DNA of 64,000 bases, from NCBI GenBank assembly GCA_950072105.1, contig CATMOE010000003.1:32001-96000 (forward strand), read 5' to 3'. The notes under the pieces are model-generated. The model searched no databases. It was not told the origin of the DNA and saw only the letters and a program-made list of their open reading frames with translations. This DNA comes from an uncultured Dehalococcoidia bacterium. GTDB taxonomy: Bacteria; Chloroflexota; Dehalococcoidia; Lucifugimonadales; UBA3495. This document shows positions 1,174-22,032 of this stretch, one piece after another. Every line of letters begins with the position of its first letter. Within the stretch, counting starts at the first letter, position 1. The position numbers and the translations under genes are program-made.

Positions 1174-1201
1174 GCAACCGGCAACCCAACTTATGGAATC
1201 T

Positions 1202-4088: not shown

Positions 4089-4362
4089 ACCATACTCCGC
4101 ATAAATCTCCGGTCAAGTCTCATTGGATTTGGGAGCTAAATTCCCACATCGCGCTCATTATGACAACGGCCCATAGTCGTGTCTACCACATGGAGTTACC
4201 CCTATCCATCATCGTGCTAGCCCGTGGCGGGTAACGGGAAAACAGTATGTCAAAAACCGGGAGAAGCACGATGCCCCGCGGGAAGTTGCGGCGGTACCAT
4301 TTCTTCAGTTGGCCTCGCAAGGCAATAAATCTGGCAGCAACCGAAGAAAAGGGAGAATTGAA

Positions 4363-4968: not shown

Positions 4969-5041
4969 GCAGGACGGCCCGGGGAAAATGCCAGTTCATG
5001 TCGCCGTAATTTGATCGATCAGGGAGTTTGAATCAGAAACC

Positions 5042-5668: not shown

Positions 5669-5817
5669 GCTTACGCGCCGATCGGAGCCAACCGTGTCAT
5701 TGGAAGAGATTAATCTTCCCCCGTCCGTCCCCCGGATCCTTCTAGGACCGCCCTCTTCTGGAGGGACCGGGGACGGATGAGCAGGCGGCGCCAAGAGATC
5801 GAAACGTCATTGCCAAG

Positions 5818-5858
5818 AAGACCGCCGGTGAGAAAGCCCTCCTCACCGGCGGTCTTTT
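5818..5858. terminator. Probable terminator hairpin between convergent genes
   Basis: AAGACCGCCGGTGAG..CTCACCGGCGGTCTT-TT. Confidence 0.6.
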
Positions 5859-6151
5859 GCGCGTCTTACCCGAAAGCTGGTGGGGCCTTTTTGCCGCCTT
5901 GCCCAACGCAAGTATTCGGACATCTGAGGGTTGGCGCGGATCAGGTCTATGGAGTGTAGCTCCTTGGCCAACGTGGTTTCGGAGAAGAGGGCGTGTAGTT
6001 GCCGGTGACAGGTGGGACAAAGCTTGGCCTTGGGTCCAAACCGGCCACCCTTGGCGCGGGGGACCAAGTGGTGCACCGTGTACCGCTCTGCGTCTCTCGC
6101 GCATAGCTCGCAAGCGGCAGACTGGCCGTTGTTGCCGGTCTTCCCATCCAT
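5843..6151 (-). CDS. Small HNH endonuclease-like protein
   Basis: CELC..TVHHLVPRAKGG..LCPTCHRQLH. Confidence 0.75.
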   Translation of the reverse strand: MDGKTGNNGQSAACELCARDAERYTVHHLVPRAKGGRFGPKAKLCPTCHRQLHALFSETTLAKELHSIDLIRANPQMSEYLRWARRQKGPTSFRVRRAKDRR

Positions 6152-6183
6152 GGATCGATCGGGATCGCGCATGATGGAACCGG

Positions 6184-6666
6184 CTACTCTTGCCCCGGCT
6201 GTTGTAGCAACCGCCAACTGGGCAAATCCACTCTCCATTCGTTTTCTTCAAGCAGCATGGGCACTATCAAACCGGACATCATGCGGCCACTGGAAACCTG
6301 GCTTTCATCGCCGGTCATCCCGAAGGGAAGAAAGGCGAAGGCATGGTCGTCATCCAGGTAGGTTGTGGGAGCCACGCCCAACTCGGTTAGGTCTTCCAGT
6401 GGCCACAGTCTCAGGATGGTGGTCCGGAAATCTTCCATCATCGAGGGGCGGCGGGGATGCGAGGAATCGTAGGCGGCCCGGTAGGCCTCTTGCATATCGA
6501 TGTCGTTTCGGGTGGCCCAGACCCCCATGCGCATGCCGCGGGTTTCCTTGGATAGCAGGGACCAGGCTAGGTCCATCAGATTGTCCCGAATAGCTTCGGC
6601 GAATACTCCGGCCCGGTTGCCGCATTCGTCAGGCTGTTGGCTTCTCTTCTCGCCGGGAATTTTCAT
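6184..6666 (-). CDS. Hypothetical protein
   Basis: 160-aa ORF with an upstream GGAAGG, co-oriented between ggt and the HNH gene. Confidence 0.6.
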   Translation of the reverse strand: MKIPGEKRSQQPDECGNRAGVFAEAIRDNLMDLAWSLLSKETRGMRMGVWATRNDIDMQEAYRAAYDSSHPRRPSMMEDFRTTILRLWPLEDLTELGVAPTTYLDDDHAFAFLPFGMTGDESQVSSGRMMSGLIVPMLLEENEWRVDLPSWRLLQQPGQE

Positions 6667-6769
6667 GCGCCTTCCATCGTGTCGCAGCTCCCTTGAGGTT
6701 CGGTTGGGTTGCGGTTAATCGCCGGAATCACCGTCAAATTATCGGATGCCGATTGATGGCGTCCGGTGC

Positions 6770-8503
6770 TTACCATCCGACGGCATATCCGTCCCGCCGG
6801 GGGTCGGCGGCTCCGTGCAATGCTCCGTTGTCTTGGTCCACCTCGATCATAACCTCGCTGCCCGCGGCCAGCCAGGGACCCAAGACATTTAACGTGTGGC
6901 CGCGATTCTCCAATTCGGTTCTAAGCTCGGGAGAAAACCGGCTTTCCATGAGCAATTCGTTCTCGCAAGTATGAGGGAAATTGGACTCCGTGGGGCTTTG
7001 GGTGTTCCGCCAGCGGGGGGCTTCCACGGCTTCGGCGACGGTCATCCCGAAATCCAATAAGTGGGTGATTACCTGTAGGTTGGTCTGCACCTGCGTGTCG
7101 GCCCCCGGGGTGCCGCAAACCAGCTTTAACTGCCCCAATGAGGTTTGGGACGCGGCGCCCGGACCGGAAGATTCGGGTGGGGCGAACACCATAACCGGAT
7201 TCATGGTGTGCCGGACCCGCTTGCCCGGTTGCAGGCAGTCAACGTGGTCTTCTTCCAGGTGCCAGTAGGTCATGCGGTTGTTGAGCAATATCCCTGTGTC
7301 TCCGGCGATAATGCTGGACCCCCAGGCGCTCTGGATGCTTTGTAGTTGGGATACGGCGTTGCCCCACCGGTCCACCACCGCAAAGCAAGTGGTGTCTTCC
7401 TCTCCATCGCCCCCGGTGACCACCGGAACTGCTGTCTGACGAGGTTTCGCCGTTTGGAATTCCCAAGGGTTTCCCGCGGAAATCTCCTGGGCCGCCCGGC
7501 TGGGGTCGATTAATTTGGCTCGTTCTTTGGCGTACTCTTTGGAAAGTAGGCCCTCGATAGGAATGTCGGTATAGTCAGGGTCGGCCATGTAGGCCTCCCG
7601 GTCGGCGAAAGACAGTTTCTTGGCTTCGACCATAAGATGGATCGATGCGGCCGTGTTGCAGCCCAGGGCCTGCAGGTCGAACTGTTCGACCAGGTTCAAC
7701 TCTTGGAGAAGTATGTGGCCGCTGGAGTTGGGCGGCGCTTCGTAAATTACGTGACCCCGGTAGGTGGTGGAGATCGCTTCCTGCCAGCGGCTGTGGCAAT
7801 CGGCCATATCTTTCATGGTCAAAATTCCGCCCTGATCCTGGCTGAATGCTACGATAGCCCGTGCGATGGCTCCTTCATAGAAGGCCTCCCTACCGCCGTC
7901 GGCCACGGCTTGGAAAGTTCTGGCGAGGTTTTGCTGGTAAAGTATCTCCCCTGGACGTAGGGGCCGTCCGTCTATGGTGAACACAGCTTGGGAGGTGGGG
8001 AACTGGCGCAACAAAGAGTCGGCGGCGATGGCGTTGGATAACACGCGGCTGGTGGGAAAGCCGTTGGCCGCCAGATCTATCGCGGGGGCCAAGACTTGGC
8101 CCAATGAGAGGACGCCGTATTTCTCGTGAGACGCCAGCCAGCTATCCAGTAAACCGGGCACGGATACGGAAAGGATGCCCTTCGTCGGGATTCCCTCAGG
8201 CAAGTAACGCTCACGGGTTGCCGCGTAGGGGGCCGCTCCGGTTCCGTTGCAGATCTCGATGCGGTCCGACTCTTTCCAGTGGACCATGATGAACCCATCG
8301 CCGCCGATGCCCGACATCAGCGGTTCCACCACGTTCAGCGCCGCGGCGGTGGCGATGGCGGCGTCCACGGCGTTGCCTCCTTGTTGCAATATGGAGATTC
8401 CTGCCTGCGAGGCCAGTGGATGGCCCGAAGAAACCATACCGTTGCGCCCCATGACCACCGGCCTATGGGACTCAAAATTCACACTGTGTGGTGACTGGGC
8501 CAT
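6770..8503 (-). CDS. ggt: Gamma-glutamyltransferase family Ntn hydrolase
   Basis: GGNAVDAAIA..VVEPLMSGIGGDGF, nucleophile DTTCFAVVD, LQPGKRVRHTMNP, GAADPRRDG. Confidence 0.95.
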   Translation of the reverse strand: MAQSPHSVNFESHRPVVMGRNGMVSSGHPLASQAGISILQQGGNAVDAAIATAAALNVVEPLMSGIGGDGFIMVHWKESDRIEICNGTGAAPYAATRERYLPEGIPTKGILSVSVPGLLDSWLASHEKYGVLSLGQVLAPAIDLAANGFPTSRVLSNAIAADSLLRQFPTSQAVFTIDGRPLRPGEILYQQNLARTFQAVADGGREAFYEGAIARAIVAFSQDQGGILTMKDMADCHSRWQEAISTTYRGHVIYEAPPNSSGHILLQELNLVEQFDLQALGCNTAASIHLMVEAKKLSFADREAYMADPDYTDIPIEGLLSKEYAKERAKLIDPSRAAQEISAGNPWEFQTAKPRQTAVPVVTGGDGEEDTTCFAVVDRWGNAVSQLQSIQSAWGSSIIAGDTGILLNNRMTYWHLEEDHVDCLQPGKRVRHTMNPVMVFAPPESSGPGAASQTSLGQLKLVCGTPGADTQVQTNLQVITHLLDFGMTVAEAVEAPRWRNTQSPTESNFPHTCENELLMESRFSPELRTELENRGHTLNVLGPWLAAGSEVMIEVDQDNGALHGAADPRRDGYAVGW

Positions 8504-8675
8504 CGGTTGCCTCCTGGTGATTATGGTCGAAATTCGAACTGAATAGAGGGGAATTAATCCAGGCGAAATTCAATCAGGATTATCCTTTGGTCCGGCAGGC
8601 AGTCAAGCGAGGAATCATTCGGCTGATCCTTGGATAGGACGTACTGCCCTCGATTGGCGATGAGGTTGCGTAGAC

Positions 8676-8711
8676 AAAAAAAGAACCGCCCAGATGCATC
8701 GGGGCGGTTCT
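8676..8711 (-). terminator. Intrinsic terminator of the HesB-like gene
   Basis: On the minus strand AGAACCGCCC..GGGCGGTTCT followed by a T-run. Confidence 0.8.
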
Positions 8712-8740
8712 AAATCATAACTTAGTTCAATTTTGAGGAA

Positions 8741-9118
8741 CTAATGTCCGCCGCAACCGCCGCTACCGCAGCCACAACCACCGCCGCCACTGCCACAGCC
8801 ACAACTGCCACTACCACAACCACCGGCGCTGGCAAACATCGGGTTGTTGATTACGAACCCAACCTGTCCGCCGAAGTTCTCCACAAAATCTATGGTAGCT
8901 TCCTCAAGAAATGGAACGCTGTCAGCGTCCATCAACAGGTTGACTCCGTCCAGAGTCAGGACCGTATCGTCGGCCTGGGTCTCCTTTTCCATGGTCAACA
9001 TGTACTGGACACCACCGGATTCTGCAGGCATTGCGATAACTCGCAGGGAGCTATCGGTTTCCCCTTGTTCTTCCATGACTTCCTTGAGTTTCTCTATGGC
9101 TAATGTGGTGACTTCCAT
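8741..9118 (-). CDS. HesB/IscA-like A-type Fe-S carrier with Cys/Gly-rich tail
   Basis: EVTTLAIEKLKE..LRV..Y.L..DD..D.DS..FLEEATIDFV..GFVINNP..CGCG. Confidence 0.85.
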   Translation of the reverse strand: MEVTTLAIEKLKEVMEEQGETDSSLRVIAMPAESGGVQYMLTMEKETQADDTVLTLDGVNLLMDADSVPFLEEATIDFVENFGGQVGFVINNPMFASAGGCGSGSCGCGSGGGGCGCGSGGCGGH

Positions 9119-9337
9119 TTAATTTCACGCTCCTTGTTATTGAACCAAGTAGCGAATCACGCTGTAGGATTGGCTAAACAAGGCTATCACAAGGGTAGAT
9201 ATGAGTCAACGATTGTAACACCCGATTAACGTAGATTCGGCTGGTGTTCGATCTGAGATTCAGAGATTCGACGACCTGCCCCATTTGATCGCTGCCACTG
9301 ACTGGCGATTCAAGTTTCGGTCAGTGTCACTGTTGTG

Positions 9338-9367
9338 TTGACAGCCTGGAATCCCCCTCTCTAATCT
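9338..9367 (+). promoter_or_regulatory. Putative sigma70-type promoter of the capsid operon
   Basis: TTGACA-N18-TAATCT. Confidence 0.45.
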
Positions 9368-9501
9368 CGATATCAACAAGTTAACCGGGTTGGCAGCCAG
9401 GCCAACGGGCCATATTTTTCGGAAGGGACAGACCCCGACGTGGATCTGTCCCTTTCTTCGTTGGTCTGGCGGCGCATCCCAAATCAGCGGGAGGTGAAAC
9501 A

Positions 9502-10314
9502 TTGACGGGGACAGGCTTGGGGCTGTGGGAACGAGAGAGGCTGCTGGAGGCGCTGGACGCTTACCAGAGAGGCCTGAGCGACGCCCCACTCTTACACAAA
9601 TGGACGGAAAGCCAGGCGGGCATCAGCGAGAACGAAGACGGCCTGGCGATGCCCTTCGTAATCTCCACCGACGAGGTTGATCGCCACGGCGACGTAATAA
9701 TGGCGTAAGGATGGCGCCTGGACGCCTATCGGAACAACCCGGTGTTTTTGTGGGCTCACGACTACGCCCGCCCGGTGATCGGCCGCGCTGTCGAGGTGTG
9801 GCAAGAGCCTCACAGACTTCTGGCCAAGATGAATTTTGCCCCCACCGAGTTCGCCCAGGAAGTCGCCATGCTGTACCGCACCGGATATCAAAAGGGTGTG
9901 TCGGTGGGATTCAAGCCCCTTCGTTATGAAGAACGGCGGGATGAGAAGACCGGAGCATTTCTGGGGATACGTTTCCTAGAGCAGGAACTGCTGGAGACCA
10001 GCGCGGTTCCCGTTCCGGCAAATCGAAACGCCTTACGACGTGCTCTGGACCAAGCTCCTGTGGTGGGTGAGTACTTGCGCCTGGTCGACGCCATTGGAAA
10101 TGCAGCCGAGGCCCCATCAAGCAACATAAATCGGGCCGCTGTTTGTGTGCATGAGGGGATCTGGCCGGAGTTGGCCGCCCGAGTGGACGACATTAGCAAA
10201 TTGATCGGAGAGTTAGCACAGATGCTGGAGGAAGCGGACCAGTTTGGCGAACCGGGGGAAGCCATGGGGCAACTGGACCAGGTGCTATCGCTGATTCGGC
10301 AAGCCCGCGCCTAG
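9502..10314 (+). pseudogene. HK97-family prohead protease interrupted by an in-frame TAA (9706-9708)
   Basis: ISTDEVDRHGDVIMA*GWRLDAYRNNPVFLWAHDY..GVSVGF..ELLETSAVPVPANRNAL; both ORFs share a frame; GGAGGTG upstream. Confidence 0.85.
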
Positions 10315-10393
10315 AAAACCAACGTGACGAAATACCGGGTTCGGTCCCGGGACCCGGCGCCAAGGCAAAAAACCAGCATTCTTGGAGGTTAAT

Positions 10394-11725
10394 ATGACCA
10401 TCGCGACTCAAGACCTAGACCTGATCAAACGGGAAGTGGCTTCGATACGGGAGTATTACCAGTCCCGAATGGACGCTGAAATTCCGCCTATAAAAGAGGA
10501 AGTGGAACGGGTTGGCGCCCAACTTGCCCGGGTACAAGATATGTGGCGTGAAGGGGAAAAGCGCGCCATCCTATCCAAGTTCGCCGGCGGTGACCGGGCA
10601 CGGGTGCCCTACGGCAAGTATACCGGGCTAGACCCCTTGGACATGGCCTGCGTCCGTAGCCTGCTCAAAGCCCAGCTAAGAGAACCCTCCGGCCTGAACT
10701 CTCGCATGTTGGAGGACTGGCAAAGCAACATAAAAGCGGCCATGGACTCCACCTCGGCGGGGAGCGGTGACGAACTGGTAGATACCCAGGAAGCACGGGC
10801 ACTGTGGGACGACGTCAATCTGGAAACCGCCGTGGCCCCGTTGTTAAACACCATTGAAATGCCCAGTAACCCGTTCCAGATTCCCCTCCAGTTGGGCGCG
10901 GTTAACTGGTTTCCCGGCACGGAGAATGTGGCCACCAAGAGCACGACCTTGGCCACCGCCCGCCAAACTCTGACCGCTTACGAGCTGGTAGCCGAGGTCC
11001 CCTGGTCCTACGACCTGGACGAAGATGCCGTCATCGCCATGATGGAGGAGCTGCGGCGAGGCCTGCTGCGGAACGCCCGGGAAGTCATTGACGACGTTCT
11101 TCTCAACGCCGATACCACCACGACCAACAACATCAACGCCGACGGAACCACCATCACGACCACCGACGCCGGCAAAGGCCATTGGTTGGTGGGCTTCGAC
11201 GGTCTGCTACATCTGCCTTTGGTCGACAACACCAGCCAGGTCAACGACCACAACGCCGCGGTCTCCGACGACATGTTCAACGAGGTCCGGGCCAAGCTAG
11301 GAAAGTATGGGGTCCGTCCTTCGGAGTTGGTGTATGTCTGCGACATTAACACCTTTATCCGGTCCCTCAGCGTGGACAATTTCCGAACCTTGGACAAATT
11401 CGGCCCGCAAGCCACTGTGCTGACCGGTCAACTGGGATCTGTGGAAGGTATTCCCGTCATCGTGTCGGAACAGATGGGCTTGGCTGACACCGACGGAAAA
11501 GTCACCGATGGAGGTAACGGCACCGACACCGGAAGGCTGCTTATCGTCAACCGCAGCCAATGGCGCGTCGGCTTCAAGAGGGAACTGGCTATCGAAACGG
11601 TTCGCGATGCCCAAAAGCGGCAGAACATCATGGTTGTCAGCTTCCGGATCGCCTTGCAAGAACGCAGCGGGACCAGATCCACCGCAACCCATACGGCTCT
11701 GCAGTACAACATCACCGGCGTCTAA
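10394..11725 (+). CDS. HK97-fold major capsid protein with N-terminal helical scaffold (delta-like) domain
   Basis: AAMDSTSAGSGDELVD.., IEMPSNPFQIP, TLTAYELVAEVPWSYDLDEDAVI, LLNADT, FDGL, GQLGSVEGIPVIVSE; directly follows the protease; GGAGG SD. Confidence 0.88.
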   Translation: MTIATQDLDLIKREVASIREYYQSRMDAEIPPIKEEVERVGAQLARVQDMWREGEKRAILSKFAGGDRARVPYGKYTGLDPLDMACVRSLLKAQLREPSGLNSRMLEDWQSNIKAAMDSTSAGSGDELVDTQEARALWDDVNLETAVAPLLNTIEMPSNPFQIPLQLGAVNWFPGTENVATKSTTLATARQTLTAYELVAEVPWSYDLDEDAVIAMMEELRRGLLRNAREVIDDVLLNADTTTTNNINADGTTITTTDAGKGHWLVGFDGLLHLPLVDNTSQVNDHNAAVSDDMFNEVRAKLGKYGVRPSELVYVCDINTFIRSLSVDNFRTLDKFGPQATVLTGQLGSVEGIPVIVSEQMGLADTDGKVTDGGNGTDTGRLLIVNRSQWRVGFKRELAIETVRDAQKRQNIMVVSFRIALQERSGTRSTATHTALQYNITGV

Positions 11726-11787
11726 ATATCAGACTCTAGCTCAATCTAAATGAAACGCTCTGTTAAGAGCGGAACCAAGGAGGATTC

Positions 11788-12246
11788 ATGACAACCATCA
11801 GCCGGGCAGACCCCACCGCCGAAGCGGTCAAGAACATGCTTCCACCGGATCAGCCGGGAATCGCTTATGTAATGAAGCGGTACATCGTTGAAGACCTGGC
11901 GTCGGGTAGTGCCAACGCTTTCGCCGTCCAGAACCCTGAGGGCGTTGATTGCGTCGTCACCAACGTGATCGTTGATATCGCCACCGCCGGGGGCACCGCC
12001 AGCTCGGTTTTGGACGTGGACGTGGTGGCCGACGCCACGTCCACTGGGGACACGATCATCGACGGATTGGACCTGAACGCCGCCGGTGTCGCCGACCGTC
12101 ATGACAATGCCGGATCCAACGGCGGCGAACCCAAGAAGTGGGACAAGAATGGAGGAAGCAATGACTACGTTACCGGGAAGATTTTGGCGCAGAATGCCGC
12201 CAGTTTGGGCGGTAAGGTAATCATCGAGTACGTCCCCCTAAGTTAG
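11788..12246 (+). CDS. Putative capsid accessory/decoration protein
   Basis: Beta-rich Ala/Gly/Thr protein directly after the capsid gene; AAGGAGG SD. Confidence 0.6.
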   Translation: MTTISRADPTAEAVKNMLPPDQPGIAYVMKRYIVEDLASGSANAFAVQNPEGVDCVVTNVIVDIATAGGTASSVLDVDVVADATSTGDTIIDGLDLNAAGVADRHDNAGSNGGEPKKWDKNGGSNDYVTGKILAQNAASLGGKVIIEYVPLS

Positions 12247-12318
12247 GCCTGTATAGGCTCGATGTAGTTTGCGAGATTTCGTTCTTATTTTCGACACAGG
12301 AGGCCTGATAGATTCGCT

Positions 12319-12933
12319 ATGAGCTATACCGAAGGAGCACATAACTCACCGGCCGACACCAAGGACCGGCTGGTCCGCATCGGCTCCAAATACCAGGCCT
12401 CCGCGCCTACTGTCGCCGATGGAGACAATGCTTACCTACTACTAGACTCAGCGGGCCGCCTCTTGATATCCGGCGCGGCGGCCCATGATGCCACGGCCGC
12501 GGGCAACCCCCTTCGCGTCGGGGGCGTGTATCGCACTGCCATACCGGCGGTGGCCGCGGGAGACATCGTAGACCTATTGCTGGATGCTGCCGGCCGCCTA
12601 AGGTTGGCCTTCAGTACCGACACGTTCAAGATTATCGACGCCGTGGCGATCACCGCCGGCACGCCCGCCACCGTCTGGACTCCGGCAAGCGGAAAGAAGG
12701 TGCGCCTGCTGGGCTGGGCTTTTTCATCCACCGCATCCGCGGCGCTGGAGTTTCAAGACAGCGGAGCCGCGGGCACGGTGATAGCCCAATCACCTTTGCT
12801 GGCTGCCGCCGGTCTCCACAACGCGCCCCCGCTGGGCGAAGGGATCCTGCTGGCCGCGGCCGACAATACCCTGGAATTGGACGTAACGGGCAACAGCACC
12901 GTATCCGGTATGGTGTTCGGCGTCGAAGAATAA
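12319..12933 (+). CDS. Putative virion structural protein
   Basis: Internal repeat (LLLDSAGRL / LLLDAAGRL); the C-terminal segment resembles the ORFs at 15698 and 16115. Confidence 0.6.
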   Translation: MSYTEGAHNSPADTKDRLVRIGSKYQASAPTVADGDNAYLLLDSAGRLLISGAAAHDATAAGNPLRVGGVYRTAIPAVAAGDIVDLLLDAAGRLRLAFSTDTFKIIDAVAITAGTPATVWTPASGKKVRLLGWAFSSTASAALEFQDSGAAGTVIAQSPLLAAAGLHNAPPLGEGILLAAADNTLELDVTGNSTVSGMVFGVEE

Positions 12934-12999
12934 GGGCGATTGAATCACCCGTGAGAAAAACTGGAGGTTAAGCATGACATCTGAGGAGAAAAAATATCT

Positions 13000-13227
13000 A
13001 TGACACGCCAGGAACAAACGGCTGCCATCACCCCCAGCATAGCCAAACCCCAGATCGATCCCCCGGTAATAAAAGGCAGTAACCGGTCCACCAAGCAAGG
13101 CCGGGCCCGAGAAGGCAATTTATTGATAGCGACGGCGCTCCTCACCGGCTCGCCGGCGCCGGAAGAAACTCTTATCGACGTGGATGCCTATGGAGACGGT
13201 ATGGCGTTTCGATTCACCTGGAGGTAG
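13000..13227 (+). CDS. Hypothetical protein in the head operon
   Basis: 75-aa co-oriented ORF; start uncertain. Confidence 0.5.
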   Translation: MTRQEQTAAITPSIAKPQIDPPVIKGSNRSTKQGRAREGNLLIATALLTGSPAPEETLIDVDAYGDGMAFRFTWR

Positions 13228-13229
13228 CA

Positions 13230-13502
13230 ATGGCAATCTCAGGCACCATCAAAGTAACATCGGCGGGCACCCGGGTCCAGGCGGCCCATAAAGGAAACGT
13301 TCGGGCCGTGGTTTTCAAAGCCCGGGCCGGCAACACCGGAGACGTGTACCTAGGCGGCAACGATGTTTCGTCCACCGACGGTATGACATTGAGTCCTAGT
13401 GAGTCCATTCAGGTAAGCCTTGCCAACCCGGAGTCTACCTCCCAATTCTGGGCCGACGCGGCCAGCAACAACGACCAGATCGATTTCGTCGGGAGCCCGT
13501 AA
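13230..13502 (+). CDS. Small putative structural protein
   Basis: VVFKARAGNTGDVYLGG..GMTLSPSESI beta-rich pattern; GGAGG SD. Confidence 0.6.
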   Translation: MAISGTIKVTSAGTRVQAAHKGNVRAVVFKARAGNTGDVYLGGNDVSSTDGMTLSPSESIQVSLANPESTSQFWADAASNNDQIDFVGSP

Positions 13503-14548
13503 ATGGTTCAACCTCAAGAGACCCACCGCCCGCTTCTACGCATGGTTTTGGAGTCCTACGTCAGCGTTACCGGCGCCACTTACGCCGCTAAGGCCGGAGA
13601 TCGGCTGATCGGCGTCAACCGCGCCGGTACCGTCACCGTAACGTTACCACCGCCCAACTCCGCGCCGGCCGGACTTATACCGTTAAGGACGAGTCCGGCG
13701 CAGCCGCAACCAACAATATCACTGTGGCTACGGAAGGATCGGAGACGATCGATGGGTCGGCTACGGACGTCATATCGGACAATTACGGAGCCAAGCACTA
13801 CTACTCCGATGGCTCCAACTGGTTTGAAGTTCCCTTGCTCCCGGCGGCGGCCATCGCCCATTCCGCCACTACCGGTCAAGGTTCCGGTGACCATCATGCC
13901 CAAGCACATACTGCCGCCCACGCCAGCGGCGGCGCCGACGCCATCAAGATTGACGACCTTGCCGCCCCCGATGACAACACCGACTTAGATTTTTCCACCA
14001 GCGCCCACGGTCTAGTTCCGAAAGGAACCAATGCCGGTAACTTCTTGAAAGACGACGGAAGTTGGGCCGCTCCCGCCGGTGGAAGTGGAGCCATAACTAG
14101 AGAAGGCGGCAGCACTACCGAAGCAACCACGACAAGCACCAGCCTGGTGGATATAATTTCAGCCGCCAGCTTATCCATTGCTGCCGGGGCTCCCATCGAG
14201 GTTATATACGTCGCGCGGAAAACCAGCGGGGCCGCCAACGATGCCAACTCCGCGTTCACGATCAACGCCACTAACGTCGGGTCTGAAAAGGTATTTAGTA
14301 CGACTAACCAGGCGGAAGCTTTCGTGGAAAATTGGCTATTTGGCACAAGAGTCACTAACTACACAGGAGTTCCGCGCCACATTCGTCTCGCTTCCGGGCC
14401 AGCCGGTTCATACGATATAACGGCCCACGGAATGCTTACACTTCCCACGGTAACAGTTACTGACCTCAACACCAGGGGTAGCGTGGACGACGCGTTAATC
14501 ACCTTGGGCCACGATGAGTACCACATCTACTCGAGGGCAGTAAGCTAG
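13503..14548 (+). pseudogene. Fibre/spike-like structural protein with a 1-nt frameshift near 13648
   Basis: Adding one base gives continuous VNRAGTVTVTLP-TAQLRAGRTYTVKDESGAAATNNITVATEGSETIDG..YSDGSNWF..HAQAHTAAHASGGADAI..FLKDDGSWAAP. Confidence 0.65.
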
Positions 14549-15190
14549 ATGCTATACATCTTTGCGGGATTCCCAAGAAACGGTCTTCACGCCGGCGGAA
14601 TCCAATTCGCCGTGGAAGAGGTAGAGCAGCTTGCCATCCTGGAACATGAGCCGCGGGCGCAGTACCGCAAAGCAGGCGTATTTTCCGTGACTGAATACGG
14701 TGAGGAATGGTTGATGCCGGTGGAATATCGGGTGAGCCGAATGTGCCTGAGAGACGGTATCACTTGGGACTGGTTTCCGGAAAACTGGACATTTGGCAAC
14801 GGCGTAACCATCAGCAAGACGATGGCCAGTCCGGAATACAAGACCGTGGTCCATGGAACAGACTTGATCTTGGACGAATTTCTCGCCATATCAGGATCTG
14901 CCAGGTTAGTGGACCTTGGATTAGAGCAAACGCATATCAAGCACGAAGGTTGGAAAGAATACGAGGCGCGCTGGGTTCCAGGAACCTGCCCCCAGGAGAG
15001 CCACGTGGTACACCTAACCTGTCTTGTTACCGTCCACCCCCTGCCTGAATTCGCCTACCAGCGCATCAGGGAGTTGATCGAGGAATCGGGGGAGCTAAGG
15101 GAGCCGGATTCCTATAGCTCTGAGGACGGCAAGCACTTTGCAACAAATCGATGCTGGGACGGCAAGCCGGTCTATACGAGGATGAGTTGA
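14549..15190 (+). CDS. Hypothetical protein
   Basis: 213-aa ORF abutting the upstream stop codon; no recognisable motif. Confidence 0.55.
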   Translation: MLYIFAGFPRNGLHAGGIQFAVEEVEQLAILEHEPRAQYRKAGVFSVTEYGEEWLMPVEYRVSRMCLRDGITWDWFPENWTFGNGVTISKTMASPEYKTVVHGTDLILDEFLAISGSARLVDLGLEQTHIKHEGWKEYEARWVPGTCPQESHVVHLTCLVTVHPLPEFAYQRIRELIEESGELREPDSYSSEDGKHFATNRCWDGKPVYTRMS

Positions 15191-15519
15191 CAGTTTACAG
15201 ATGTCTCAGGATTGTAAACACAGGCCAGTGGCTTGATGTTCTATTTACCTCTTCCAGCGAGGATTTTGAAGTTCCTGATCTTTCCCACCGGACGGATATT
15301 GCGAATGCTCTCGGCCTTGATCCCGCTGAGCTTGAGGCCTTGGATACTAATGATGACCAAAGGAGTGGCCTCCTCTTAGGTATACCAATACTACCGGAGG
15401 CGCCACCGGACCCAGACCAGGTCAGGACACGAGAACTTCTCTCCATACCCCGGTCCAACTGGACGGCCGCTCAACGAGCCGAATTATTGGAACTCATCGC
15501 GTTGGAGAATTTGAGATGA
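15187..15519 (+). CDS. Hypothetical protein (possible fibre assembly chaperone)
   Basis: TTGA overlap with the previous stop; acidic N-part, PEAPPDP linker, short helical C-terminus. Confidence 0.5.
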   Translation: MTVYRCLRIVNTGQWLDVLFTSSSEDFEVPDLSHRTDIANALGLDPAELEALDTNDDQRSGLLLGIPILPEAPPDPDQVRTRELLSIPRSNWTAAQRAELLELIALENLR

Positions 15520-15701
15520 TCCCCATCAACAAAGGCATTTTAGCTCGCCGATGGGCTGCCGTCGCGGCTCTGGGAATCGTATCCGTGACCGCCGTCGAGC
15601 TGTATGCCCTCGCCCAAGGGATAAACGGCACGGCGCTTACAGCCTCCCTGGCGGCCATCGCCGGCCTGGGAGGAACGGGCATCGGACGGCTGCTCAAATG
15701 A
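15516..15701 (+). CDS. Small two-TM membrane protein (holin-like)
   Basis: WAAVAALGIVSVTAVELYAL and ALTASLAAIAGLGG, basic C-terminus; ATGA-coupled at both ends. Confidence 0.55.
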   Translation: MIPINKGILARRWAAVAALGIVSVTAVELYALAQGINGTALTASLAAIAGLGGTGIGRLLK

Positions 15702-16111
15702 CCAGCCAGCGAGTTTCATCACGGAGGACCCACAGCGTCAATGTTAGGCGCCGGGCGTACGTGGCGCAGGTTAACTCCCACGATTCCAATACGTCTAACA
15801 CCAGGGATACGTTAGTCACGCCGTCCAAGGGTAGACGGATCCGTCTATTGCGAGTGAGAGTGATCCAGGAACTAGCCGCCGGCTGTCATCTGTGGGAATT
15901 GTACTTCGGCACTGGGGCCGACATAACCATCAATCCGGACAACGCAATCGACATCTTAGACATTCCTGACTTAGGTGAAGCCAGCACTCGGACTTTCCTG
16001 AGGGAAGAAGGCCCCAGAGGTCTCCGGGATGAGGTTCTTAGCGGGCGGTGGCTGGGGACTCCTCCCACGACGGTGCACAAAGTAATCGTCGAATACTCCG
16101 ACGAATCCTGA
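15698..16111 (+). CDS. Hypothetical protein, paralog of 16115-16534
   Basis: Shares HLWEL.FG, ID.L..PD.G.A.TRT, GPRG..DEVLSGRW.G and K.I.EY with the next gene. Confidence 0.7.
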   Translation: MTSQRVSSRRTHSVNVRRRAYVAQVNSHDSNTSNTRDTLVTPSKGRRIRLLRVRVIQELAAGCHLWELYFGTGADITINPDNAIDILDIPDLGEASTRTFLREEGPRGLRDEVLSGRWLGTPPTTVHKVIVEYSDES

Positions 16112-16114
16112 GCC

Positions 16115-16534
16115 ATGCCATTGTCCTTAGTTCGCCGGAGCGTCCGCCGGACCCATCGGGCCGCGATCCGCCGCCGGCCATATCAACTCCGGGTAAAGAT
16201 AGTGGATGGCAGCACCAGCATCAGCCGGCAACACCTGCTGGCGCCGGTAAGGGGCTACCATGTCCGGCTCATTCGAGTCAAGGTGCTTCAGACTTCCAGC
16301 GACGGCCGGCATTTGTGGGAATTGTTCTTCGGGGATGCCGGTAACATGATTACCGCTCCCAACCGGTCGATCGACGTTCTGGCCGTGCCTGACGCGGGCA
16401 GCGCAGTAACCCGCACGTATTCCAGGAGCCAGGGACCCCGAGGCAAAAAGGACGAAGTGCTCAGCGGAAGATGGCGAGGAGTGGCTCCAACGTCAACTAC
16501 TAAAATCATTATCGAATACACCGAAGAGGCGTAG
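16115..16534 (+). CDS. Hypothetical protein, paralog of 15698-16111
   Basis: Same shared motifs. Confidence 0.7.
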   Translation: MPLSLVRRSVRRTHRAAIRRRPYQLRVKIVDGSTSISRQHLLAPVRGYHVRLIRVKVLQTSSDGRHLWELFFGDAGNMITAPNRSIDVLAVPDAGSAVTRTYSRSQGPRGKKDEVLSGRWRGVAPTSTTKIIIEYTEEA

Positions 16535-16604
16535 CACCGCCTTGATTTCCGTAGTGGGAATTCAAATCCGTTCCCATTTTCAGGAAGGCTATAGGGAGTA
16601 AAAC

Positions 16605-17426
16605 ATGGCGCGTGAAGCATATAGGTCCCTGTATGGTGACCTAACCAAGCTCAAAGACGATAGTCTACTGAAGGACCCAGCTGCCGGTGCCGGTGACGAC
16701 AACGAGATGTTCCAGTTGCTTCTGGCCGTATCGGACTGGGTGGATCATTTCTGTAACCGTTATTTCTATTCCAAGACGCAGACAATGGAGTTCGACGGCA
16801 CCGGCTCCACCAGGCTGCTGATTCCCGATCTGGTGTCGCTGACTTCTCTAAAAGAGGATTCCACCGACGACCAATCGTTCAACGAAACATGGGCGGCCGG
16901 CGATTATCGGCTTGAACCCTATAACGGCGAACCGGAACAGCACTGGGGTGAGCCTCATACCTCTATCCGAGTCCGGCAGCATGGCGCCAAGACCACATTC
17001 AGCAGTGGGGAGCAGCGATTCCAGATCGCCGGTGTCTGGGGCTATCGTCAATATAAAGAGGACAGTGGCACAGACCTCAACGACGCTGCAATGGCGGCCA
17101 CAAAAATCACTGTCCCGGTTGACGACGGGACTCAGTTCGCTATTGGACAGACCATTATGATAGGCAGCGAGCAGATGCTCATTACGGATATATCCACCAA
17201 CGATCTAACGGTGACCAGGGGGTTGAACGGCACCACCGGCGTCGCTCACGCCGACAACTCGGACGTTTTCACCCTCCGTTGGCCCGCATCTATCGAGCGT
17301 GCGGTTCTCATACAGGCCTCGCGAATTTGGACTAGGGCCGCCGATTTCGAGCCATTTTTCGTGGATGCCGACGTAGACACTGATGTTCGCATTCTGGGCG
17401 AACCCTATAAACGGCTTCCTATTTAG
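16605..17426 (+). CDS. Head-tail connector/adaptor-like protein with an inserted beta domain
   Basis: DDNEMFQLLLAVSDWVDHFCNRYF..FDGTG..LLIPDL..IAGVWGY..WPASIERAVLIQASRIW..D.DV..L..PYKR. Confidence 0.75.
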   Translation: MAREAYRSLYGDLTKLKDDSLLKDPAAGAGDDNEMFQLLLAVSDWVDHFCNRYFYSKTQTMEFDGTGSTRLLIPDLVSLTSLKEDSTDDQSFNETWAAGDYRLEPYNGEPEQHWGEPHTSIRVRQHGAKTTFSSGEQRFQIAGVWGYRQYKEDSGTDLNDAAMAATKITVPVDDGTQFAIGQTIMIGSEQMLITDISTNDLTVTRGLNGTTGVAHADNSDVFTLRWPASIERAVLIQASRIWTRAADFEPFFVDADVDTDVRILGEPYKRLPI

Positions 17427-17522: not shown

Positions 17523-17556
17523 ATTCCCTCTGCGCATGTCCATGCGCAGAGGGAAT
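17523..17556. repeat. Perfect 16-bp inverted repeat downstream of the head operon (possible terminator)
   Basis: ATTCCCTCTGCGCATG-TC-CATGCGCAGAGGGAAT. Confidence 0.8.
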
Positions 17557-17603: not shown

Positions 17604-17632
17604 TTGACTTGCCAGGGTGAGTAAGCTAAGAT
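17604..17632 (+). promoter_or_regulatory. Putative sigma70 promoter of the ABC transporter operon
   Basis: TTGACT-N17-TAAGAT. Confidence 0.5.
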
Positions 17633-17827
17633 TCGGCCGCTCTCACATATTAAGTATTACATTCTATTATTTGGATATGCCTGGGATAGCTGCTGCTTTC
17701 CCGTTGAGGCTGGGAATGTAAAGCTTCGGTTCGCCAGATTGAATTTAGATTCATCTGGTGGATTTGAACGTAACACCCGCCTGAACGTGGTAGGGGCACT
17801 TAGTACCAAGAAGACGGAGGATTAGTT

Positions 17828-19753
17828 ATGCGGACACACCCTTGGGTTAACACTCGGACGTTGCTGCCAATCTTGGCAGCTTCTTTATTGTTGCTGGCCG
17901 TTGCCTGCGGCGGAACCGCGGCCACGCCAACTGTGATAGAGAAAGAGGTTATTGTCGAGAGGGAAGTCATCAAGGAAGTACCCGTTGAAAAGCAAGTAAT
18001 CGTCGAGAGAGAAGTCATTAAAGAGGTCATCAAAGAAGTCCCGGTTGATCGAGAAGTCATCAAAGAGGTAGAGGTCATAAAAGAGGTGGAGAAGCAGGTG
18101 ATCAAAGAGGTCATCATCCGGGCCACTAACACTCCTATACCGACCGCTACCCCAGGCGCCCGGCAGACCCCGGTGCCCAGCCAGGCGCCCGTGTACGGAC
18201 AGCACGTTAACATGCGGGCTTACGCCGACACCAAGGACTGGGACCCGCTGGGTTCCTCATCTCTTTCCAGCGTGATCTCCTACTCCCAGCTCTACAACCA
18301 GGTGGTGCAGTACGACACGATCGACACCAGTAGAATCGTCTGCGACCTGTGTACGAGTTGGGAGATCTCCAACGCCGGCAAGACATTCACGTTCCATCTC
18401 AATAGGAATGCCAAATGGTTCGACGGTACGGACCTAACCTCCGCCGATGTGGTTTACGCTCTTAAGCGCTATTACGATCCCGATGTCTCTATCGGCAGGT
18501 CAGGACTTACCCGCAACTATGTCGATGAGAATCTTGACAACGGTTTGAAGGCCATCGACGGCGACACCGTGGAGTTCAACCTCCAGTTCGCTTCGGGGGC
18601 GTTCATCAAGTTCTTGGCAGTCGACTACGCTAAGATTCTCCCCAAGCACATAATGGAACAAGGGGTAGACCTGAACCAGGCTGAAAACGTCCTCAAATAC
18701 AATGCTGGCTCCGGTCCCTTCATCTTGCAGGAGTATAAACGAGGCAACTTCTACAAGGTGGAGAAGAACCCCAATTACTTCAAAGTGGGACGTCCCTTCT
18801 TCGACTCCATAGATCACTACATCATCACTGACGCCTCCCGCTACATCTCGGCCCTCAAAGTGGGCCAGATCGACATGTCCAACGCTGGCGGGGCGTCTCT
18901 GACCCCCAAACAAAACATCCAACTGGTGGAGGACACCGACAGCGAGGTCGTGGCCCACTTCTTGTCACCGTCCTTCAACGTGGGTCTGATGATAAACCGC
19001 AAGAAAGCGCCGTTCACTGACCCCCGTGTGCGAAAGGCGATCTACCTGGCCTTGGACCGGCAGGCGATCGACCGTATCGTATTGGATGACACCGCTGGAG
19101 AGCCCATGGTATTCATGCCTGGGATGGCCCATTCCGAAGACGAAGCCTCGAAATGGCCGGGCTTGCGTCCAAAGGATACTCCCGGCGGTAAAGAGGACTT
19201 GGCAGAAGCCAAGCGGCTGATGGCTGAGGCTGGCTTCCCCGACGGGTTCAAGACTGACTTCCACTCCCGGAAGGTCTCTTTCTACGTACCGATCTGTCAG
19301 GTGGTCAAAGAGCAACTCAAGGAGACCCTTGGTATCACCGGCGACCTCATGACTCACGAGAGCGCCGCTGGCTACAAGATGTACGGCACCGCCCGGGCCG
19401 CGGACGCCGAAGGTGACTGGGGCTTGGGCTGTCAGGGTGAGGGAATGGTCGTTCTGGACGCTGATGCCGTCTTGGGTGGCGTATACCGGCCGGGCGGAAC
19501 CAGGAACTATACCGATTGGTCCCACCCGAAGGTCGAGGAGCTGTTCCAAAAACAAAAGGTCGAGCAGGACCTGGACAAGCGCCGGGAATATCTGCGGGAA
19601 ATCGCCGACATCATCCGGGTGGGTGACAACCACTGGGTAACTCTGGTGTGGGGCCGGTTCTTCTGGCAGATGCACCGGGACGTTAAGGGCTTCCATCCGC
19701 CCCAAACCGTCCAGTATGGCTTCAAGCACGAACATCTCTGGCTAGATCGGTAA
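17828..19753 (+). CDS. ABC transporter family-5 (Opp/Dpp) solute-binding lipoprotein with N-terminal V/E/K repeats
   Basis: Lipobox LAVAC; DLCTSWEIS..TFTFHL..WFDG..LTSADV; GSGPF; PFTDPRVRKAIYLALDR. Confidence 0.92.
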   Translation: MRTHPWVNTRTLLPILAASLLLLAVACGGTAATPTVIEKEVIVEREVIKEVPVEKQVIVEREVIKEVIKEVPVDREVIKEVEVIKEVEKQVIKEVIIRATNTPIPTATPGARQTPVPSQAPVYGQHVNMRAYADTKDWDPLGSSSLSSVISYSQLYNQVVQYDTIDTSRIVCDLCTSWEISNAGKTFTFHLNRNAKWFDGTDLTSADVVYALKRYYDPDVSIGRSGLTRNYVDENLDNGLKAIDGDTVEFNLQFASGAFIKFLAVDYAKILPKHIMEQGVDLNQAENVLKYNAGSGPFILQEYKRGNFYKVEKNPNYFKVGRPFFDSIDHYIITDASRYISALKVGQIDMSNAGGASLTPKQNIQLVEDTDSEVVAHFLSPSFNVGLMINRKKAPFTDPRVRKAIYLALDRQAIDRIVLDDTAGEPMVFMPGMAHSEDEASKWPGLRPKDTPGGKEDLAEAKRLMAEAGFPDGFKTDFHSRKVSFYVPICQVVKEQLKETLGITGDLMTHESAAGYKMYGTARAADAEGDWGLGCQGEGMVVLDADAVLGGVYRPGGTRNYTDWSHPKVEELFQKQKVEQDLDKRREYLREIADIIRVGDNHWVTLVWGRFFWQMHRDVKGFHPPQTVQYGFKHEHLWLDR

Positions 19754-19780
19754 CCAACCGATTAGGCAAGTCAGTTTTAC

Positions 19781-19813
19781 GGCACCCTGGCCTGTATCTT
19801 GGGTCAGGGTGCT
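19781..19813 (+). terminator. Hairpin after the SBP gene (terminator or mRNA stabiliser)
   Basis: GGCACCCTGGCCT..GGGTCAGGGTGCT. Confidence 0.45.
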
Positions 19814-19944
19814 AGGTATTCTCGGGAGACCCTCTTAATTTAGGTCGCCGTTCAAATGAAACTGACCGGGCTAGTCCAACTCATATGGCGGATGTACGGA
19901 TAGAAGCTCCGTGCTTAAAACCCCTGAACACCGGAAGAGCGTAG

Positions 19945-20901
19945 ATGAGACAGTACACGATAAAGAGAATAGGCCTGTTCATACCCACTGTTATATTAGT
20001 AACTGTCTTGGTCTTCGTGCTGATGCGGATAATCCCCGGGGACCCCGCATTGGCCATTCTGGAAGATGAAGGAGGTGGCTCCTATACTCAGGAAGACCTG
20101 GCTAGACTGCGCCACGAAATAGGTACAGACCGGCCTATCGTGGTCCAATATGCCACCTGGGTTAGCGGGGTGGTCCGGGGAGACTTTGGAGATTCTCTCT
20201 GGTTTAAGGCCCCGGTCATGGGTGAATTGAAAGACCGGATACCGACAACGGTGGAGTTGGCAGTGTTCGCTATGGTCCTGGCCATGGTCGTAGCTATCCC
20301 TCTGGGGGTGGTTTCGGCCATCAACCCCGACAGTAAATTGGATTACGCCGCCCGGGTGTTCACCCTGACCGGTATCGCTCTGCCCACATTCTTCACCGGG
20401 ATTCTGATAATACTGTTCCTGGCGATGCTGTTCAATTGGCTACCGCCACTGGGATACGAGACGCTCTGGGATGACCCGAAGTCTAACCTGCAGCAAATGT
20501 TCTTCCCGGCCTTGGCATTGGCAGGTTATGACTTGGCTTTCATCGCTCGGGTTACCCGCTCCTCCATGATGGAGATTCTGCGGGAGGACTACATGCGGAC
20601 CGCCCGCTCTAAGGGTCTGTCCGAGCGGGTCGTGTTGACCCGTCACGGCTTGAAAAATGCTTTCCTGCCCATTCTCACCATTTCAGGCTGGCAGTTCGGT
20701 CGCCTCTTTGGCGGCACAATCATCATCGAGAGCATTTTCCTGGTTCCTGGCATGGGACGGATCCTCATCGAGTCCATAGGTCACCGGGATTACGTCATGA
20801 TACAGGCGGTCGTTGTGATAATAGGGCTGTCCATCGTAACCATAAATCTGTTGATAGACCTGCTTTACGGCTGGTTGGACCCACGCATCCGTTTCGCGTA
20901 G
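19945..20901 (+). CDS. ABC permease, OppB/DppB family
   Basis: IIPGDPA..GDFGDSL..EDYMRTARSKGL..RHGLKNA..LDPRIR. Confidence 0.93.
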   Translation: MRQYTIKRIGLFIPTVILVTVLVFVLMRIIPGDPALAILEDEGGGSYTQEDLARLRHEIGTDRPIVVQYATWVSGVVRGDFGDSLWFKAPVMGELKDRIPTTVELAVFAMVLAMVVAIPLGVVSAINPDSKLDYAARVFTLTGIALPTFFTGILIILFLAMLFNWLPPLGYETLWDDPKSNLQQMFFPALALAGYDLAFIARVTRSSMMEILREDYMRTARSKGLSERVVLTRHGLKNAFLPILTISGWQFGRLFGGTIIIESIFLVPGMGRILIESIGHRDYVMIQAVVVIIGLSIVTINLLIDLLYGWLDPRIRFA

Positions 20902-20946
20902 CGTGTCCGCGCAGTGGTCCGTCATAGCCACAGGAGGTAGCAAGGG

Positions 20947-21855
20947 ATGCTTGTAGACCGAACCCGGGAAACTGCCGCAGCGGAGACTTTGGCCATACTT
21001 CGGCCGAAGTCTACACTTCCCGTTGCGCTGCTCCGGTTCTGCGCCCAACAACCCCTGGGTGCCTTTGGCGCTGCAGTGCTTATATTCGCTGTCGTGGTCG
21101 CCGTGTTGGCCCCGATGCTTGCGCCCTACAGTCCCACAGCGATAGAGGTAGCGGAGAAATTCACACCGCCCTTTGGTAAGCAGATCCTGGGCACCGACGA
21201 ACTGGGCCGAGACGTGCTGAGCCGGTTGATCTTTGGAGCGCGCATATCCATGTCGGTGAGTTTGTTAAGCGTGGGCATAGCAATCTCCGCGGGTACGTTG
21301 ATCGGCATCTTCAGCGCCTACTCCGGCGGTAAGACTGACCTGGCTATCCAAAGGCTGGTGGACACAATGATGGCATTTCCGGCCATCATCATGGCATTGG
21401 CACTGATGGCCGCTCTGGGGGCTTCTCAGACCAACGTGATTGTGGCCCTGGTGGTGATACTTCTGCCGGGCGCAGTCAGGGTCGTGCGGTCACAAGTCCT
21501 TAGCATAAAAGAGCAGGACTATACCCTGGCTGCACGAGCTATTGGTGCCGGTTCCACCCGGATCATGCTCCGTCATATCCTCCCCAACGTCATGGCCACT
21601 TACATAGTGTTGAGCACCATTACTCTCGGTTATGCCATCGTCGTCGAGGCGTCTTTGAGCTTCTTGGGCGTGGGGATCCCACCGGATATCGCCTCATGGG
21701 GCGGTATGCTGAACCTGGGTGCCACCACATACATCGATGTGTCGCCGTGGCTATCGGTCTTCCCAGGTATTACCATTGCGGTGATAGTGTTTTCGGTCAA
21801 CCTCCTTGGCGACTCTCTTCGGGATGTCTTGGATCCCAGGCTACGGGGCAGGTAA
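20947..21855 (+). CDS. ABC permease, OppC/DppC family
   Basis: LGTDELGRDVLSRLIFGARIS..RHILPN..NLLGDSLRDVLDPR. Confidence 0.93.
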   Translation: MLVDRTRETAAAETLAILRPKSTLPVALLRFCAQQPLGAFGAAVLIFAVVVAVLAPMLAPYSPTAIEVAEKFTPPFGKQILGTDELGRDVLSRLIFGARISMSVSLLSVGIAISAGTLIGIFSAYSGGKTDLAIQRLVDTMMAFPAIIMALALMAALGASQTNVIVALVVILLPGAVRVVRSQVLSIKEQDYTLAARAIGAGSTRIMLRHILPNVMATYIVLSTITLGYAIVVEASLSFLGVGIPPDIASWGGMLNLGATTYIDVSPWLSVFPGITIAVIVFSVNLLGDSLRDVLDPRLRGR

Positions 21856-21901
21856 CCCTCTATCACTGAACTGCGACCTAGTTAACAGCCCAACCGTCAT
21901 A

Positions 21902-21954
21902 GTTTGACACAATTAGGGGATAGGACTCGGTCCTATCCCCTAATTGTGTCAAAC
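21902..21954. repeat. Perfect 25-bp inverted repeat with 3-nt spacer
   Basis: GTTTGACACAATTAGGGGATAGGAC-TCG-GTCCTATCCCCTAATTGTGTCAAAC. Confidence 0.9.
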
Positions 21955-22032
21955 AGCCCGGGTGGTGACATACCATTCGCCCCCGGATATACTGGCGGCA
22001 TCCCCCGTGAAATTTACTGAGAGGCCAACCCT

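Follow-up and report, generated by a model that had tools for sequence, protein, structure and literature searches.

The window analysed here, a stretch of 64,000 nucleotides from an uncultured Dehalococcoidia bacterium (assembly GCA_950072105.1, contig CATMOE010000003.1, positions 32,001 to 96,000 of the forward strand), contains at 9502-17426 an operon of phage-type head genes. Our best explanation, to which we give an even chance, is that this capsid operon and a second, terminase-portal operon on the same contig encode a domesticated DNA-packaging particle of the gene transfer agent (GTA) kind, a viriform that is inherited with the chromosome and is tailless in this clade. Anatomy and inheritance are GTA-like but the tail is missing, and packaging data would be needed to file the system as a GTA.

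The initial annotation of the stretch had described a co-oriented run of head genes between host genes, and this was borne out. The run lies on the plus strand and is bordered by an IscA/HesB gene (8741-9118, minus strand) and by an ABC solute-binding protein gene (from 17828, plus strand). It comprises a protease, a capsid gene, ten accessory genes (eleven open reading frames, ORFs) and a head-tail adaptor, and its GC content is close to that of the flanking DNA. The same annotation had recognised no portal, terminase, tail or integrase; within the operon this holds, as PHROG and Pfam profiles gave no such match among its ORFs and no att-like repeats were seen at its flanks, but a portal gene (C3:15186-16580) and a large terminase (TerL) gene (C3:16734-18080), both on the minus strand, lie outside the window on the same contig, C3, 23-26 kb upstream of the protease. 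The gene order there, among host genes, is zinc-ribbon ORF (67 aa, with three unnamed homologues), TerL, portal. Across the aligned relatives TerL keeps what we take to be its Walker B (DEA), coupling (GNP) and nuclease motifs. Neither operon gave a match to a self-replication or integration gene among its ORFs. TerL, portal, protease and capsid are contiguous in 5 close loci of the 80 described below (L247, L272, L274, L275, L277) and in genome G036, which suggests that this was the ancestral order; in other relatives the two halves are up to about 1 Mb apart.

Some further observations concern terminases. The PF03237 profile found no terminase in this genome although TerL is present, which warns against absences based on a single profile. 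In G039 several TerL copies occur at four loci, and a small-terminase (TerS-like) gene lies inside a terminase operon whose TerL and portal genes are separated by a large insert gene. In several relatives a 61-aa gene of unassigned family (L032, 18753-18935, minus strand; 52-76% identity) is retained next to the terminase operon.

The distribution of the system was assessed in 60 genomes, namely this one and 59 relatives. A capsid match was obtained in 33 of them, always at a single locus, as in this genome, while portal and TerL were matched in 36 and 35 genomes respectively (one TerL match being weak). All three genes occurred together in 30 of the 33 capsid genomes, and 23 of the 27 genomes devoid of the capsid also gave no portal match. 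G002 is devoid of all three; as HesB and TlyA are close to contig ends in this genome, it was not counted as a loss. A wider draw from the class returned a capsid match in 5 of 150 further genomes. A scan of GTDB genomes yielded 124 confirmed stretches, 80 of which were kept; all 80 are labelled Dehalococcoidia, Chloroflexota/Chloroflexi or SAR202, and 13 marine or subsurface DNA runs contain at least 94% of the sampled words, the host lineage probably being marine Dehalococcoidia of the SAR202 group. The capsid operon sits at the same locus in many genera, adjoined by HesB in 49 of the 80 loci, so that the synteny proposed as a check in the initial annotation was found. Capsid (80/80) and protease (78/80) are the sole near-invariant genes of the operon, the genes for two jelly-roll proteins of 137 and 139 aa being present in 58 and 55 loci, and none of the 80 loci matched two integrase queries.

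The two operons share their control elements. Upstream of the protease, a conserved promoter (9325-9367, plus strand) shows a TGTCA-N9-TGACA inverted repeat over the -35 box (TTGACA), an 18-bp spacer and a -10 box TAATCT, and is followed by a leader hairpin with a U-run (9425-9458, plus strand; -22.5 kcal/mol, z -2.46) that resembles an intrinsic terminator and could act as an attenuator. The pattern TTGAC-N19-TA...T was found upstream of the protease in 55 of 57 cases and upstream of TerL in 23 of 29, against 0.1 and 0.0 in shuffled sequences. Since it also precedes HesB in 22 of 49 cases, only the leader hairpin is specific to the two operons. This hairpin, GGAC(A/G/C)GACC...GTCC followed by a T-run, lies 3' of the promoter in both; protease leaders have its core in 49 of 57 cases and TerL leaders in 24 of 29, and each of six control sets gave 0-2 sequences with it. 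The 3' arm pairs in 43/46 protease and 18/22 TerL leaders, with compensatory changes, and the T-run follows in 46/46 and 20/22. In a genome-wide model scan the two operons ranked first (60.9 and 43.8) and the next site scored 20.9; as the training of the model included these sites and the assembly is 92% complete, the scan shows only that no third similar site stands out. The conserved leaders suggest that both operons are co-regulated by attenuation and would require antitermination to be expressed. Antitermination is used by the Caulobacter GTA, according to the accessible part of 10.1101/2023.11.12.565669.

Tree and distance comparisons show the descent of the system to be largely vertical, with exchange of the adaptor. 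Capsid and RpoB patristic distances were correlated with a Mantel r of 0.815 (30 genomes) and TerL and RpoB distances with a Mantel r of 0.809 (29 genomes), none of 5000 permutations being as high in either case, and the capsid identity to this genome is about that of RpoB (84.8 versus 85.7% in G010). The capsid and RpoB trees have 9 of 27 splits in common (0.2 at random), and the congruence with the species tree that the initial annotation had listed among its checks is thus present in part. Substitution rates were then considered as the ratio of nonsynonymous to synonymous changes (dN/dS), calculated by the Nei-Gojobori method on 28 non-overlapping pairs from 74 of the 80 loci, chosen by capsid dS. 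The values of 0.13 for the capsid, 0.20 for the protease, 0.18 for the adaptor and 0.17-0.22 for the jelly rolls, compared with 0.06-0.28 for neighbouring host genes (paralogues are mixed in some of the host and jelly-roll values), show purifying selection and not the neutral evolution that had been named as an alternative outcome. Portal and TerL gave 0.13 and 0.15 against G001. With the nearest relative, L170, the ratios were raised on small counts (capsid 0.22, accessories up to 0.42, HesB 0.06). The capsid gene is unbroken in 77 of the 80 loci. As for intact temperate phages, also considered at the outset, only one capsid relative among the 33 genomes was seen in such a phage: the capsid of G043 (51-55% identity) lies in a complete myovirus-type prophage with sheath and tape measure. 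The proposal of a host-maintained particle with its packaging genes elsewhere has therefore gained support, terminase and portal being 23 kb away, apparently co-regulated with the capsid operon, co-occurring with it and co-evolving with the host.

The tail is where the system departs from a GTA. A tail tube and a 650-700 aa hub were found in 10 of the 11 capsid-bearing family members outside one clade, in nine of the ten a few kb 3' of the capsid gene; in G055 and G046 a tube-hub block is far from the capsid operon. Tailed relatives L126 (8072-12433), L122, L124 and L128 encode an adaptor, a terminator, a tube and a hub of 650-700 aa. No tape measure was recognised between tube and hub of the tailed relatives, and none was found with PF10145 in this genome or in five single-contig relatives, which partly excludes a tail of an unrelated family. 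The remaining clade comprises 14 genomes, which form one group in the RpoB and capsid trees alike, and neither tube nor hub was found in any of them, this genome and two single-contig assemblies included; the comparison shows that both genes were lost in this clade. The search for orphan loci that the initial annotation had suggested recovered portal and terminase, but tail genes nowhere in the genomes of the clade. Clade-wide absence of the tail, a neck shared with small mobile circles and a broken copy in this genome are features which that annotation had not foreseen.

In the tailless clade the genes that follow the capsid encode a small membrane protein, two jelly-roll paralogues and an adaptor. 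The AlphaFold model of the 139-aa protein is a single jelly roll (pLDDT 89); the structures that it matches best (Z 8.6-8.9) are those of a small-virus capsid, of a turret and of a cement jelly roll. The fold is a common one and does not reveal a function. The jelly-roll pair fills the slot in which a sister mobile element carries tube and hub (L188 versus L191). The adaptor model matches the neck chains 9lw9_C of phage Mycofy1 and 6toa_C of the Rhodobacter capsulatus GTA (RcGTA) with probability 1.0 and TMq of about 0.42. A complex prediction for two adaptors and the 139-aa protein scored 0.00 and was not used. At the sequence level the adaptor is 69% identical to that of the mobile element L190 and 33-37% to those of tailed relatives, and the adaptors of the tailless clade group with those of mobile elements (100/100; 28 of 42 rows used). 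A single clade of chromosomal adaptors was rejected by the approximately unbiased (AU) test (p 1.6e-59). All 64 loci with an adaptor at least 50% identical to that of this genome, a redundant set with flanks of at least 2.5 kb, have a jelly-roll gene nearby and no tube, hub or terminator.

Relatives of the system were also sought in IMG/VR. Contigs with a capsid identity above about 74%, where long enough, mostly have the same host flanks and are chromosomal fragments, whereas a second group has capsids 61-68% identical. Within it, L188 (14.8 kb; 1-14913) and L190 (12.8 kb; 1-12943) have overlapping ends and are therefore circular. They encode a portal, a TerL of their own family, protease, capsid, homologous accessories and the adaptor, with no tail; L190 adds TerS and HNH genes and L188 an integrase. 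Primase, AlpA and a separate head-tail connector went unrecognised in the circles, as did an integrase in L190. A 49-bp match of L188 to the 3' end of a tRNA-Gly of this genome, and intergenic repeats that L188 and L191 share with it, point to a related host. Over integrase, protease and capsid, L188 shares 86-88% identity with L191, yet between membrane protein and adaptor L191 has tube and hub where L188 has a jelly-roll-family gene. Both belong with L190, L192, L195 and L196 to one family, whose members measure 13-16 kb and carry genes for head and packaging; L188, L191, L195 and L196 also have an integrase. Members of the family are tailless or have tube and hub with no tape measure, and no replication gene was recognised among them. 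The circles' portals are only 46-47% identical to those of the chromosomal system, their TerL belongs to a different family, and the promoter model of the chromosomal operons gave no score with them. In the capsid tree FastTree placed the circles outside the chromosomal copies of the family (0.952) and IQ-TREE joined them to the tailless clade (94/100), with the AU test not rejecting the FastTree placing (p 0.26 and 0.31), so that exchange with the circles may have run in either direction.

As for the single genes of the capsid operon, all on the plus strand, the initial annotation had named an HK97-type protease, a major capsid protein, accessory genes and a connector. These assignments are upheld by PF04586 (E 1.3e-6, over the cut-off) and phrog_80 for the protease (9502-10314), by phrog_10 (E 4.9e-12) for the HK97-fold capsid protein (10394-11725) and by phrog_442 (E 1.4e-10) for the adaptor (16605-17426), but two lesions had escaped it. 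The protease gene is interrupted by an in-frame TAA at 9706-9708 (codon 69), presumably upstream of its His/Ser-type motifs. The same stop occurs in two independent IMG/VR contigs (L168 and L169, 99.7% identity), while L170 and L171 (95% nucleotide identity) have instead a different stop two codons further and L173 has an intact gene. The second lesion affects a fibre-like gene (13503-14548, weak tail match to phrog_20556), which a 1-bp deletion near 13650 has split into two overlapping ORFs (13503-13988, 161 aa, and 13724-14548, 274 aa); it is unbroken, with 290-402 aa, in seven homologues (L172, L177, L184, L185, L182, L202, L096), and the deletion recurs in the one 99.7%-identical IMG/VR contig that extends to it. 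As both lesions recur in independent contigs, they are not assembly errors. The stop probably blocks head maturation, unless a restart at 9742 yields an active fragment; the copy in this genome is thus probably defective and looks like a recent non-producer.

The capsid gene starts at an ATG behind a ribosome-binding site at 10394, in an ORF opening at 10382. It is followed by a 152-aa virion accessory protein (11788-12246), whose nearest Atlas clusters are unnamed phage proteins and whose homologues stand immediately 3' of the capsid gene in relatives and mobile circles; it is probably a head decoration protein. Next come a 204-aa accessory protein (12319-12933), weakly matching the head decoration family phrog_122 (E 0.045) and 65% identical to its counterpart in L190, and accessory ORFs of 75 and 90 aa (13000-13502), the latter having homologues not only in relatives but also in mobile elements and the G043 prophage. 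Beyond the fibre-like gene lie ORFs of 213 and 122 aa (14549-15519), patchy among relatives, with homologues in L172 and L202 and no PHROG or credible Pfam match. A 61-aa hydrophobic membrane protein (15516-15701, hydropathy peak 1.94; 45 of 80 loci), holin-like in position and hydropathy, precedes the tandem jelly-roll paralogues (15698-16534; 137 and 139 aa, about 47% identical). A perfect 16-bp inverted repeat 3' of the operon (17523-17556) is likely a terminator. Atlas look-ups of the operon proteins returned unnamed phage clusters only, and PDB sequence searches with TerL, the adaptor and the 152-aa alignment gave nothing useful. Metatranscriptome contigs from three runs cover parts of the capsid region (X14, 10883-11211; X15, 10714-11312; X16, 10178-10528); they are short, with a depth of 3.8-8, and in the same runs the neighbouring host genes appear in long or deep contigs. 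These data consist of contigs only, whose depth cannot rank genes and which may include DNA carry-over. Near the N terminus of the ABC solute-binding protein (17900-18100, plus strand) a low-complexity (V/I)EKEVIxE repeat causes contigs to mis-join in the RNA runs.

Under the GTA-like reading, both operons would normally be shut by their leader terminators and be read through jointly only upon induction. Proheads would assemble on the portal and be matured by the protease, TerL would fill the heads, the adaptor would close them, and the small membrane protein may aid release. No small terminase was recognised in this system, the searches being weak (phrog_4044 was empty, and its control was silent too); packaging should therefore be of non-specific host DNA. 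The accessible text of PMC6854486 proposes loss of sequence-specific TerS function as the basis of random packaging in RcGTA and describes a GTA TerS that has no specific DNA-binding domain. Tailed relatives would finish with a stub tail of terminator, tube and hub, devoid of a tape measure, and the tailless clade carries instead the jelly-roll pair and a different adaptor. The heads of this clade might be delivered by capturing free phage tails, as in phage-inducible chromosomal islands that form capsids (cf-PICIs), or by a jelly-roll cap. In cf-PICIs adaptor and connector determine tail specificity, as stated in the part of 10.1101/2025.02.11.637232 that is accessible. A more specific version, in which the clade swapped its tail module for the neck of the satellite-like circles, delivers heads with host DNA through captured tails or the cap, and still trades parts with the circles, is tentative and, as it stands, unlikely.

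Several observations weigh against the GTA-like reading. Known GTAs have tails and none was found in this clade, which leaves DNA delivery unexplained, and the adaptor itself is missing from the locus in 5 of the 14 tailless genomes. The absence of TerS rests on weak searches, and Walker A of TerL reads GKG in most rows of the family and not GKS/T, which we take to be the canonical form. Tree congruence is partial, with 4 of 14 supported capsid splits in conflict with RpoB. Breaks affect the portal (split or stopped) in 7 of 36 genomes and TerL in at least 6 of 33 rows, compared with 1 of 33 genomes for the capsid and RpoB matches free of internal stops in 30 of 30; the breaks in G020 and G055 may be assembly errors. 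Ten stops were counted in about 99,700 codons of the element and none in about 63,500 codons of host genes (kin, not independent), and frameshifts were seen in both (10 element, 6 host). Finally, in G001, which belongs to the same genus, the operon has been deleted as far as the 3' end of the adaptor, and G004 has lost the capsid gene amid apparent transposases. The system is thus old and maintained, yet often lost at the tips of the tree. Alphaproteobacterial GTAs are likewise pseudogenised or lost in some lineages, according to the accessible part of PMC10883770.

These breaks and deletions, the turnover of accessory genes and the raised dN/dS against L170 (small counts) would also be expected of a grounded satellite remnant of no benefit to the host, that is, an ancient cf-PICI-like element that lost its integrase, was split, persists where circles or helper phages occasionally use and refresh its head genes, and decays elsewhere. 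The adaptor shared with mobile circles and the best capsid tree, uniting circles and tailless clade, speak for it as well. We consider it improbable, although the foremost of the rivals, because each genome has a single locus, which keeps its position from genus to genus and diverges much as RpoB does, the circles differ in TerL family and portal, and both halves have retained after the split matched control elements for which the circles did not score. Defence loci typically show patchy loss, and a further rival holds that the operons serve anti-phage interference: a phage antiterminator would switch them on and tailless heads would soak up tails or DNA through the adaptor, lowering the burst size. 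Leader terminators suit such activation in trans. Defence genes do not usually keep a fixed position over family-level time, no activating phage was identified, and tailed relatives encode their own tube and hub; this rival ranks below the satellite remnant, in spite of a tailless head-plus-neck anatomy like that of cf-PICIs (10.1101/2025.02.11.637232, accessible part).

The empty shell that the initial annotation had offered as an option appears less likely still; on this view the particle would be a mostly empty decoy or compartment, with selection acting on a core of capsid and protease while DNA packaging disappears. Capsid and protease alone are near-invariant, G027 has just these two genes at the locus, and breaks are more frequent in portal and TerL than in the capsid; the option was nevertheless weakened by the retention of portal and TerL in nearly all capsid genomes under purifying selection, with intact motifs and a shared control element, and by the lack of a cargo enzyme gene or an encapsulin Pfam hit in the operon. 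The other option raised there, a recent and clean deletion of an ordinary prophage evolving neutrally, was largely refuted and is now very improbable. The two lesions of this copy and the myovirus-type prophage of G043 fit it, but the same locus is occupied in many genera, dN/dS is far below 1, the tree is host-like, and neither an att repeat nor a match to the two integrase queries was found.

Two observations lie apart from the system. On contig C23 of this genome (G000, about 17631-22111, outside the window) 29 tRNA genes lie on one strand with a 383-aa ORF within, which we take to be RtcB-like, and a serine-recombinase-like gene stands at the contig start. In the window, two tandem archaeal-type flagellin genes (archaellin, PF01917; 4309-5668, plus strand) were found, with no other archaellum gene recognised adjacent to them.

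The GTA-like reading would make this a candidate independent domestication in a SAR202-type lineage, which is abundant in the deep sea and sponge-associated. Nature provides a succession of states among the relatives (contiguous and split, stub-tailed and tailless, broken and deleted), and mobile relatives persist in metagenomes; origin, upkeep and loss of a GTA-like system are therefore testable. Moreover, many chromosomal fragments of the system are listed as viruses in IMG/VR, which bears on marine virome counts. A literature search, with subscription journals and supplements outside its scope, found no description of a GTA-like system in SAR202 or Dehalococcoidia. GTAs outside Alphaproteobacteria are described as hard to detect by sequence and their prevalence as an open question in the accessible text of PMC11841831. 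If tailless heads do deliver DNA, the route would be one undescribed for GTAs in the parts of the literature examined.

Among known systems, a temperate prophage, intact or a recent remnant, is characterised by an integrase, att sites, variable occupancy and a non-host tree, and the present system does not fit this description. Encapsulins and encapsulin-like mini viruses also have genes for a tailless HK97-fold shell amid host genes, but the mini viruses have no terminase, portal or connector, as the accessible part of PMC13669383 states, whereas all three are kept in the present system, which has no cargo gene; an encapsulin, defined by a shell gene with a cargo enzyme and by the lack of portal and terminase, was ruled out, since portal and TerL co-occur with the capsid under apparent co-regulation and no encapsulin Pfam hit was obtained. 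The cf-PICIs also combine protease, capsid, portal, TerL and adaptor and are tailless, no tail having been found in this clade either, and the circles L188 and L190 are similar to them in size and content; L188 fits in size and integrase, with no replication gene recognised. However, a cf-PICI is a contiguous island of 10-18 kb with integrase and replication module, while the chromosomal system is vertically inherited and has no att sites or recognised primase; TerS, HNH and connector, which cf-PICIs encode as well, were not found in it with the queries used (the control of one search was silent). The cf-PICIs have neither tail nor lysis genes and use the tails of other phages; the present system gave no tail in this clade and has a holin-like ORF. 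Split and lacking an integrase, it was ruled out as a cf-PICI.

The GTAs of Rhodobacter capsulatus and Caulobacter crescentus (RcGTA and CcGTA) differ in phylum and apparently in phage ancestor; here terminase and portal are split from the capsid, no tape measure was found in this genome or the five single-contig relatives, and a whole clade has no tube and hub. For the present system random packaging and transfer are predictions. In common with those GTAs, it combines head and packaging genes but lacks genes for replication or integration, is spread over several loci and descends vertically, with occasional pseudogenes; terminator read-through is a likely control, and its adaptor fold resembles the RcGTA neck chain. 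Known GTAs are described as multi-locus, vertically inherited and similar to remnant phages in the accessible part of PMC11841831.

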